Shown here in pieces: positions 5,430 to 6,381 of a stretch of 43,817 nucleotides of DNA (the first letter of the stretch is position 1; each line of letters opens with the position of its first letter). A model generated the notes under the pieces. The model was not told the origin of the DNA. It did no database searches and saw only the letters and a program-made list of their open reading frames with translations. The translations under genes and the position numbers were made by a program. Source of the DNA: a virus (Duplodnaviria > Heunggongvirae > Uroviricota > Caudoviricetes); the IMG/VR virus record IMGVR_UViG_2558860161_000008, positions 1 through 43,817 of that record; one strand, given 5' to 3'.

Positions 5430-5720
5430 TTTCTCCACAAAACAGAGAAGAACACCTGCGGTGACTGCCGCCCGGATGGATTGGGTTATGAGCCCGTCGT
5501 CCGGTGATGCTCTTCTCTGTTTTGTAAAAAGGACGGTACCAGCCGGAAGCAAGGGTACAAGCTGGTACCGCCAAGACTACACACAGCATAAAGTTGTGGT
5601 GCCGGGTGCCTCCCGGTGCCTGGCGAAGGTTGCACACCAGGCTGGTGGGTATCCACAGAAGGTCGACTGTCAGCCTCAACCTTAACCCGCGTGCGCTGAG
5701 CCGCATTCACCACAACGCTA
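5430..5720 (-). other. GC-rich highly structured RNA element within the leftward early transcript (candidate cis-regulatory or noncoding RNA)
   Basis: Nested perfect inverted repeats: 14 bp (5438-5451 / 5511-5524), 10 bp (5534-5543 / 5561-5570), 9 bp (5593-5601 / 5708-5716), plus several short GC hairpins; no convincing ORF. Confidence 0.35.
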
Positions 5721-5825
5721 AGGATTCTCTCTGGTTGAAAATACTTAGCTGTTATGTGCCTGTCTTTTCACCACTTCAGGCTCGGTGGTATCCTTTTAAG
5801 CCCGTATACATAAAAGGAAAATCAA

Positions 5826-6071
5826 ATGACTTTTGATGAAAAAGAACTTGATAATGCAATTAATAAAATCATCGTAACGTCGCTCTTTTCCTGTCTCAGC
5901 GACACTCAGCAGAAACAGTTCTACGAATCGGCTTTCAACATGATCGAGCGTTGTTGTTTCTGCGATGCCGACGAGTTACCTGAAAAAATCAGGAAACAGT
6001 TGGCTGATGCTCTTCGAGTGCGACTTTCTGACCAATTTTCTGAAATGTGCTCTCCGAATTTGGACAAATAG
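5826..6071 (+). CDS. Hypothetical protein (81 aa) in the immunity region
   Basis: ATG preceded by AAGGAAA at 7-nt spacing; rightward, opposite to the surrounding early-left genes. Confidence 0.4.
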   Translation: MTFDEKELDNAINKIIVTSLFSCLSDTQQKQFYESAFNMIERCCFCDADELPEKIRKQLADALRVRLSDQFSEMCSPNLDK

Positions 6072-6264
6072 AAAAAGGCCATTTCCATTCAGGGTCTGAT
6101 GGAAATACTTCAGCCTGTTCCAAAGCACGGCGTAAAGAGAATACACCTCCAGCCATAATCTGATGTTTCCCATTGGTCCAGCTATCGCCGCTCTGATCTA
6201 CAGGAGCGGCTATGTCGTATGACCAAACGACTTCACCACTATTGTTTAAAATCTGGACTTTCAT
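5989..6264 (-). CDS. Hypothetical protein (91 aa), first gene downstream of pL
   Basis: ATG at 6262-6264 with GGAGG 11-12 nt upstream; 3' end overlaps the convergent 5826..6071 ORF by about 80 nt; not N-like. Confidence 0.4.
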   Translation of the reverse strand: MKVQILNNSGEVVWSYDIAAPVDQSGDSWTNGKHQIMAGGVFSLRRALEQAEVFPSDPEWKWPFSICPNSESTFQKIGQKVALEEHQPTVS

Positions 6265-6381
6265 TTTGTTCTTTAACCTCCAGATACGGGCGTTTAATGG
6301 CCCCGCCGAACAGCTCTTTTCCGCAATAGCTGCAATGTCTTTCGCGCATCAGCCTGCGCATTCACCACAACTCTAAAAACA

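Follow-up and report, generated by a model that had tools for sequence, protein, structure and literature searches.

Genes and repeats of the early leftward leader

The lambdoid prophage analysed here, of the SfV/e14/CPS-53 type, is the IMG/VR record IMGVR_UViG_2558860161_000008 over its whole length of 43,817 nucleotides (nt), which we call the window. Its early leftward promoter, pL, is followed by a leader in which the same 15 nt occur twice, the two copies heading a truncated and a complete version of a structured RNA related to STnc100, and it is with this repeat and this RNA that the present analysis is concerned. The promoter lies on the minus strand at 6382-6411 (-35 TTGACA at 6411-6406, an 18-nt spacer and -10 TACATT at 6387-6382), scores 10/12 in a consensus scan and adjoins the cI-like repressor gene (6498-7151, -), from which a cro-like gene (7247-7444, +) diverges; the stretch with pL shares 99.5% identity with the corresponding region of phage Lys8385Vzw. 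Given this position and the promoter spacing, the leftward RNA should therefore start at about 6374. Both copies of the 15-mer sit within the first 800 nt of that transcript, the upstream one at about +4 to +18.

The repeat, CGCATTCACCACAAC on the plus strand, is present in the window in exactly two copies, at 5702-5716 and 6357-6371, as a first-pass annotation of this DNA had noted, and no further copy was found in the window at up to two mismatches (0.11 expected from shuffled sequences). Allowing one mismatch lengthens the match to 20 nt (5702-5721 and 6357-6376, spacing 655, repeat family D12). Taken by itself the repeat is unexceptional: the window holds 32 direct-repeat families with 12-nt seeds, and, judged roughly from sequence length, about one exact pair of 15-mers would be expected in 44 kb if distance is disregarded, and about 0.04 if the copies are to lie within 1 kb. 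Its non-randomness comes from homology, both copies being the conserved 5' end of one RNA family. Indeed, the same 15-mer heads the corresponding elements of Lys8385Vzw, mEp460 and SfV, and several further relatives of both alleles described below begin with its first 12 nt, GUUGUGGUGAAU.

Read in the sense of the leftward RNA, each copy is GUUGUGGUGAAUGCG and runs into a short hairpin, which is GCGCA-GGCUGA-UGCGC (6359-6344) after the upstream copy and GCGGCUCAGCGCACGC (5704-5689) after the downstream one; the last GCG of the 15-mer belongs to this hairpin, named H1. The hairpins had likewise been seen at first pass, as had the fact that the copies bracket the first open reading frame (ORF) of the pL operon. 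This 91-amino-acid ORF (5989-6264, -) is a homologue of SfV orf33 (PHROG 3195, E 7e-63), and its 3' end is overlapped by an 81-amino-acid ORF on the other strand (5826-6071, +; PHROG 3311, E 1e-55), which is bracketed as well. No Pfam family was matched by either, and the 91-amino-acid product is not N-like, with no arginine-rich N-terminus by eye. The first conserved early-left gene past the RNA leader is a homologue of SfV orf32, annotated as such in that phage (5026-5388, -; 120 amino acids; PHROG 204), and the mechanically called ORF 5026-5706 is this gene over-extended upstream across the RNA element.

A complete element with a pseudoknot and a terminator

The downstream 15-mer (5702-5716, -) provides the 5' strand of the closing helix, the GAAU junction and the start of H1 of a complete element at 5591-5718 (-), a divergent member of the STnc100 superfamily that forms a four-way junction with a pseudoknot and that we refer to as type B. 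The proposal that this copy forms a 9-base-pair (bp) long-range stem closing a structured element was borne out: in the closing helix, here called helix P1, GUUGUGGUG at 5716-5708 pairs with CACCACAAC at 5601-5593, and the pairing covaries in relatives. The hairpins H1 (5704-5689) and H3 (5642-5618) are likewise defined by the fold together with covariation, and H4 (5616-5602) by the fold. In the pseudoknot, which was assessed by a permutation test, AAGGUUG at 5683-5677 pairs with CAACCUU at 5632-5626 in the loop of H3. The element as a whole folds with a z of -6.6.

An intrinsic-terminator-like hairpin follows at 5524-5572 (-), with a 12-bp stem (GGCGGUACCAGC at 5572-5561 and GCUGGUACCGUC at 5543-5532) and then CUUUUUAC at 5531-5524; a simple terminator scan had missed it because the loop limit of that scan is 8 nt. 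The terminator hairpin (5572-5532) forms in the minimum-energy fold alongside the element, so any effect of the element on termination would not come from simple sequestration of the terminator. A riboswitch-like attenuator is disfavoured by this coexistence, and on inspection no pairing was seen between the 3' strand of helix P1 and a terminator arm. Between the terminator and orf32 lies a long near-perfect hairpin with a stem of about 25 bp (5437-5525, -), conserved in Lys8385Vzw, SfV and mEp460, the 5' arm of which overlaps the U-run of the terminator; it resembles an RNase III substrate. A consensus scan found no promoter belonging to the type-B copy itself.

From at least 120 loci a pattern scan of IMG/VR recovered 78 distinct elements, 97-127 nt in length, all of which share the order P1-H1-H3-H4. 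Their common architecture consists of helix P1 (UGGUG/CACCA plus three to five further pairs), the GAAU junction, H1, a variable middle, H3 and H4, the last with the sequence CCGGG-AGGCA-CCCGG and abutting the 3' strand of helix P1. Both-sided changes occur in 14 of the 26 consensus pairs, and the extension of helix P1, H1 and H3 covary. The pseudoknot joins the segment just after H1 to the H3 loop, and its two strands change in step across subtypes (AUCAGC/GCUGAU, CUGGUG/CACCGG and CCAGUC/GACUGG; the AAGGUUG/CAACCUU of this prophage becomes AAGGCUG/CAGCCUU in phiES15). Duplex energies averaged -9.3 kcal/mol with the strand's own partner as against -5.3 kcal/mol with mismatched partners, and none of 2000 permutations reached the observed value, a test that is inflated by the relatedness of the sequences and involves about ten distinct pairings.

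A covariance model built from 38 relatives, R1, gave 78.5 bits (E 8e-17) on 5591-5718, which is the only complete copy in the window. The same model scored 68 bits in the ban operon of phage P1, 65.6 bits in prophage e14 of E. coli K-12 and 23.9 bits (E 1e-3) on the second allele, type A, and found no match in HK022. With the Rfam STnc100 model (RF02076), a permissive scan returned a full-length match (model positions 1-206) at 5523-5746 (-) with 40.9 bits (E 4e-7), which is below the gathering cutoff of 47 bits that marks membership of the Rfam family. Type-B relatives score 29-41 bits with this model. Above the cutoff, at 52.6 bits, stands the canonical copy of phage HK639, which lies between Q and the holin gene and is bracketed by terminators.

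In e14 of an E. coli K-12-like strain, a coding sequence annotated as 'ymfH' overlies the complete type-B element (L129 3013-3329) as well as sequence downstream of it, and is directly upstream of xisE and intE. Rather than a protein gene, this 'ymfH' is probably a region of non-coding RNA, and in our window the mechanical ORF 5026-5706 is an artefact of the same kind. A search of the literature on ymfH, and on SfV in connection with antitermination and orf33, returned nothing on this leader.

Two alleles and where they occur

The pL leaders of SfV/e14/CPS-53-like prophages carry two alleles of the element, which share helix P1 and the 5' boundary sequence. Type B has the pseudoknot between the segment after H1 and the H3 loop; type A has complementary loops in H1 and H4, the H1 loop GCUGAU being complementary to the H4 loop AUCAGC of the same RNA. 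A second scan, for type A, yielded about 90 distinct sequences (L001 2784-2922; loci L131-L249), making it a large subfamily that is a remote relative of the family modelled by R1 and that the Rfam STnc100 model does not detect at E <= 0.01. The few compensatory variants that we saw by eye (ACUGA/UCAGU, GUCGA/UCGAC and GGUGAU/AUCACU) are suggestive of a contact between the two loops. A hammerhead-like CUGAUG/GAAA in H1 of type A was dismissed on inspection, as the two motifs have no stem II between them and no Rfam ribozyme matched.

Family members are commonly followed by a terminator. A hairpin with a U-run lies within 160 nt downstream of 84 of 108 distinct members as against 56 of 274 control windows, mostly 43-82 nt after helix P1. 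Promoter-like sites directly upstream are uncommon, being found in 5 of 95 type-A and 20 of 95 type-B or canonical members. For type A the commonest neighbours are a cI-like repressor gene upstream and orf32, DUF2303 and HD-hydrolase genes downstream, the downstream genes being co-directional with the element. In the canonical and type-B set nearly all neighbours are co-directional, most often Q antiterminator genes upstream and genes for the sialate esterase nanS-p, holins and lysozyme downstream. Tandem arrays also occur, with three to five copies at intervals of about 250-500 nt (L016 2323-3353; L025 370-991; L031 1723-3286; L064 4377-8518). We read through one array (L025), in which every unit comes with a terminator of its own and an A/T-rich spacer; one of its copies carries a compensatory change in the otherwise invariant core of helix P1 (UGAUG/CAUCA).

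Origin of the direct repeat

The upstream 15-mer (6357-6371, -) consists of the 5' strand of helix P1 (6371-6363), the GAAU junction and the first 3 nt of H1 of a truncated type-A element. In Lys8385Vzw the same repressor gene and the same pL are directly followed by one complete type-A element of about 135 nt and then by the same terminator. The RNA of that element is headed by the same 15-mer, starting AGAGUUGUGGUGAAUGCGCAGGCUGAUGCGCG, and ends in CCGGUCACCACAAC (CCGGAGAUCAGCACCGGUCACCACAAC). Pairwise alignment of our window with Lys8385Vzw ends at 6286, which puts the breakpoint 86 nt inside the element, and therefore the upstream 15-mer heads an orphan 5' half that lacks H4 and the 3' strand of helix P1. 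This 86-nt fragment (6286-6371, -), on which R1 gave no match, retains H1 at 6359-6344.

The leader is accordingly a mosaic. Over the block 6500-6286, which holds the end of cI, pL and the first 86 nt of type A, the identity to Lys8385Vzw is 99.5%; the block 6266-5300, with orf33, the antisense ORF, the complete type-B element, the terminator, the long hairpin and the start of orf32, is 98.2% identical to SfV. Between them lies a 19-nt junction (6267-6285, -) that matches neither of these two phages and carries the GGAGG Shine-Dalgarno sequence of the 91-amino-acid ORF. SfV has its type-B element after orf33, and in its alignment with our window it shows no upstream 15-mer. The direct repeat goes back to the first 20 nt being common to the type-A and type-B alleles. 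What lies between pL and the element is unrelated cargo that differs from phage to phage, namely orf33 with the antisense ORF in SfV, ymfJ and ymfI in e14, two antisense ORFs in mEp460 and none in Lys8385Vzw; no homology was found between the cargo ORFs of our window and ymfJ/ymfI of e14.

The two-copy arrangement proved to be a rare recombinant, the mosaic junction occurring in 30 of 5426 complete E. coli genomes, as well as in phages vB_EcoM-720R4 and SKA5. The type-B element itself is present in at least 1830 of the same 5426 genomes.

Direct repeats flanking a cargo-like segment of 640 bp could also be a target-site duplication left by insertion of an orf33 cassette, or a coincidence in a stretch where short repeats are common. 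We give these explanations next to no credence. The two copies are followed by different alleles, 86 nt of type A in one case and a complete type B in the other, so that there is no single split site; in the alignment the flanks beyond the repeats do not join into one sequence, and the recombination breakpoint is at 6286 and not at the repeat. Chance is further opposed by the recurrence of the 15-mer, or of its first 12 nt, at the head of elements in other phages.

The repeats as antitermination signals

The first-pass annotation had likened the 15-mer and its hairpin to the boxA and boxB of a nut site, or to a put site. In the lambda-type version the 15-mer would act like boxA and the hairpin like boxB, together recruiting an N-like protein and Nus factors. 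There is a likeness to lambda and P22 nut sites in that a short conserved sequence, resembling a single-copy box, is followed immediately by a small GC hairpin at each copy, with the upstream copy near the start of the pL transcript, and the hairpin with its GCGC stem bears a superficial resemblance to the boxB of P22. The rest of the evidence does not fit. The 15-mer is unrelated in sequence to the boxA consensus; the pattern YGCTCTTWA (boxA like CGCUCUUUA, at most one mismatch) has 33 matches as against 30 expected, that is, the level of chance, with none in the pL or pR leaders. No N family was found among the early ORFs scanned, the first pL ORF having a PHROG 3195 match and no Pfam family. 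Both copies of the 15-mer are in the pL operon and R1 finds no element in the pR operon, so there is no pR counterpart. Furthermore, the supposed box is one strand of a covarying helix and not a single-stranded protein-binding site, and the hairpin loops are of 6-7 nt, with that of type-A H1 complementary to another loop of the same RNA. We therefore reject the nut reading as highly improbable, boxA being at chance level and an N-like protein absent from the ORFs scanned.

A different proposal concerns the complete element, which might be a cis-acting, put-like RNA that acts on RNA polymerase and allows it to read through the terminator at 5572-5524 and later ones. Read-through at put RNAs depends on the zinc-binding domain of the polymerase beta' subunit, and rpoC mutations in this domain block put. 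The put of HK022 is an RNA of about 70 nt with two stems, and the layout of HK022 putL, a structured RNA after pL and before terminators, matches the placement of type A (PMC9378689). Type A is mostly found between the cI-like gene and the conserved early genes, usually with a terminator after it, and in Lys8385Vzw it comes directly after pL. Shared with the HK022 and HK639 put sites are thus the position of a structured RNA just downstream of pL with terminators to be passed (PMC9378689), and the setting in lambdoid phages, no N homologue having been found here. Such an element would provide N-independent expression of the early-left operon in a prophage where the only antiterminator found is a Q-type protein (13448-14206) of the late operon. 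An elaborate tertiary structure would suit binding to a protein or RNA polymerase, and the element and terminator do form together in the minimum-energy fold.

Homology to put was rejected by searches in both directions. A search with the HK639 putL detects the HK022 putL (E 5.8e-6) and nothing in this leader, and R1 finds nothing in HK022 and does not find the annotated HK639 putL; no similarity of sequence or structure is seen between those RNAs and the element, a four-way junction of 115-135 nt that has no pR copy. The distribution of the family also argues against an antiterminator. HK639 has its own annotated putL-like RNA, yet its canonical family copy is found downstream of Q in the late leader, a place with no need for an RNA antiterminator, and the canonical and type-B members in general mostly have Q upstream and lysis genes downstream, places in which, unlike those of the HK022 and HK639 put sites, Q already provides antitermination. 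Tandem arrays of up to five copies are hard to reconcile with such a function, and the L025 units with their own terminators look like a string of small-RNA genes. The absence of a copy in the pR operon weighs in the same direction. On balance we regard a put-like action of the element as unlikely, while granting it a minor chance.

The late leader of HK639 holds two further matches, an isrJ-like one (34.6 bits, the cutoff being 37) and a tRNA (L130 44281-44353 and 44363-44434), upstream of the STnc100 copy; the isrJ-like match sits at the first terminator after Q.

Competition between the two copies

The suggestion that the two copies could compete for one partner was examined with an equilibrium model of the native pL RNA over 860 nt. 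In this model the distal copy, i.e. the one next to pL, pairs with the 3' strand at 5601-5593 with a probability of 0.999, and competition is therefore thermodynamically possible. The local helix P1 returns, with probabilities of 0.87-1.0, when the distal copy is scrambled or when the RNA is shortened from its 5' end to 6360 or below. The native RNA has -298.0 kcal/mol, as compared with -290.4 kcal/mol when the proximal pairing is forced. The nearest-neighbour energy model behind these values ignores the pseudoknot and the kinetics of co-transcriptional folding.

One could take this as a designed switch, in which the pL-proximal copy competes for the 3' strand at 5601-5593 and toggles the element between a compact and an open form, tuning termination or the output of a small RNA. 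The predicted pairing of the distal copy, and its reversal upon truncation or scrambling, are what such a switch would call for, but of selection for one there is no sign. The arrangement is rare, SfV is without the upstream 15-mer and Lys8385Vzw has a single element, and the upstream copy is demonstrably a truncated allele. A translated ORF moreover separates the two strands, which are at a distance of 770 nt, so that the local helix should be favoured by folding during transcription, and the model that predicts the long-range pairing lacks both the pseudoknot and folding kinetics. A switch of this kind appears improbable to us, even if the competition itself can be produced in the model.

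Relation to known small RNAs

The type-B element and STnc100 share a full-length alignment in which the closing helix UGGUG/CACCA, the GAAU junction and the first hairpin correspond, as does the last hairpin, CCGGGAGGCACCCGG, which abuts the 3' strand; the architecture is thus that of STnc100. Both are followed by an intrinsic terminator, the Rfam STnc100 model itself including a 3' terminator stem, and both are located in lambdoid prophages with co-directional neighbour genes. The differences are the sub-cutoff score, the divergent sequences of H1 and of the interior, and the setting, as the type-B element lies in a repressor-controlled early-left operon with no promoter-like site of its own, whereas most canonical STnc100 copies are found between Q and the lysis genes. 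Neither the pseudoknot nor the loop-loop contact appears in the printed Rfam structure line for STnc100, which cannot display pseudoknots. A canonical STnc100 copy downstream of stx2B overlaps the Hfq-bound small RNA EcOnc27/sRNA103 (PMC12711010). PasD small RNAs, which are related to STnc100, are Hfq-associated, abundant in Hfq RIL-seq data (in which interacting RNAs are ligated and sequenced) and validated by northern blotting, and their function is unknown (bioRxiv 10.64898/2026.05.13.724894).

A more limited likeness is to DicF, which has UUGGCGGUAnCAG in common with the terminator hairpin at 5532-5572 (-). DicF is a small RNA of a repressor-controlled prophage operon, of early-left type in the Qin prophage, and ends at a terminator hairpin. 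The match is weak (RF00039, 19.4 bits, E 0.26) and confined to the terminator stem, and the Rfam model of DicF is without the upstream four-way-junction domain. The ban operon of phage P1 contains an annotated 'dicF-like region' together with a full copy of the element (L004 2500-2627).

Elsewhere in the window, two RNA matches above their Rfam cutoffs, isrK (8413-8489, 63.7 bits) and C4 antisense RNA (8514-8601, 82.8 bits), both on the plus strand, fall within a mechanically called ORF of 382 amino acids (8053-9201). They point to an antirepressor control region of the P1/P7 type in the pR operon and to a true gene start further downstream. The 5' part of isrK recurs near the right end of the window as a direct repeat of 32 nt with 78% identity (8420-8451 and 43377-43408, +), and the site at 43377-43408 is possibly a second isrK-like fragment.

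Interpretation

We consider it likely that the 15-mer is the conserved 5' end of a prophage RNA of about 115-135 nt belonging to the STnc100/PasD superfamily, and that its duplication in this leader is a recombination scar and not a pair of nut sites. This explanation draws directly on the homology, the breakpoints, the fold and the covariation described above. The leader is a recombinant: pL and the first 86 nt of type A have been kept, and at 6286 they are joined to an SfV-type block with orf33, the antisense ORF and the whole of a type-B element. What results is an orphan 5' half beside a complete element, hence the direct repeat. After loss of repression, transcription from pL would run through orf33 and the complete element would fold locally. 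Many transcripts would then end at the terminator (5572-5524), leaving an RNA with a structured, terminator-ended 3' end which, by homology to the canonical members, may be an Hfq-associated small RNA, while orf32 and the genes after it would be expressed from transcripts that read through. Most probably the orphan copy is a leftover without function.

Several observations sit less easily with this explanation. At equilibrium the native transcript is predicted to have the shared 3' strand paired with the orphan and not with the local copy, and therefore the orphan, as far as the model goes, may not be inert. The putative small-RNA function is extrapolated from canonical members, whose scores exceed the Rfam cutoff, and the present copy scores below it. 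Moreover, a small RNA that acts by base pairing has no need of anything as elaborate as a four-way junction with a covarying pseudoknot. Finally, a strong terminator stands right before conserved early genes in a prophage where no N homologue was found, and their expression would have to get past it.

Another reading is that the STnc100 superfamily, the pL-leader alleles included, is not a simple base-pairing small RNA but a compact RNA with a tertiary fold, in which the covarying pseudoknot or a loop-loop contact would lock the four-way junction in a way that recalls the elbow of tRNA. Situated between phage promoters and a terminator, such an RNA might bind a machine of the host, for instance RNA polymerase, RNase P or the ribosome, and govern read-through or processing; the orphan strand of this recombinant would then serve as an inbuilt decoy by which the element is remodelled. 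We think the chance of this being the case is small, and continue to favour a putative terminator-ended small RNA duplicated in part by recombination.

Recognising the repeats as the 5' ends of an RNA element removes a false lead, namely that they are nut sites. The repeat as such is an ordinary finding; the RNA family is widespread, poorly annotated and structurally richer than its Rfam entry. It places a structured RNA followed by a terminator in the pL leader of a group of prophages that is very common in E. coli, Shigella and Salmonella (SfV, e14, CPS-53-like), a stretch that in the records we examined is unannotated, called a hypothetical protein or named "ymfH", and the current Rfam model misses the type-A allele. 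Concrete mutations are suggested by the covarying pseudoknot, and the loop-loop contact is a candidate target, for probing the function of the family. The same mutations would bear on how phages lacking N express their early-left genes past a strong terminator.

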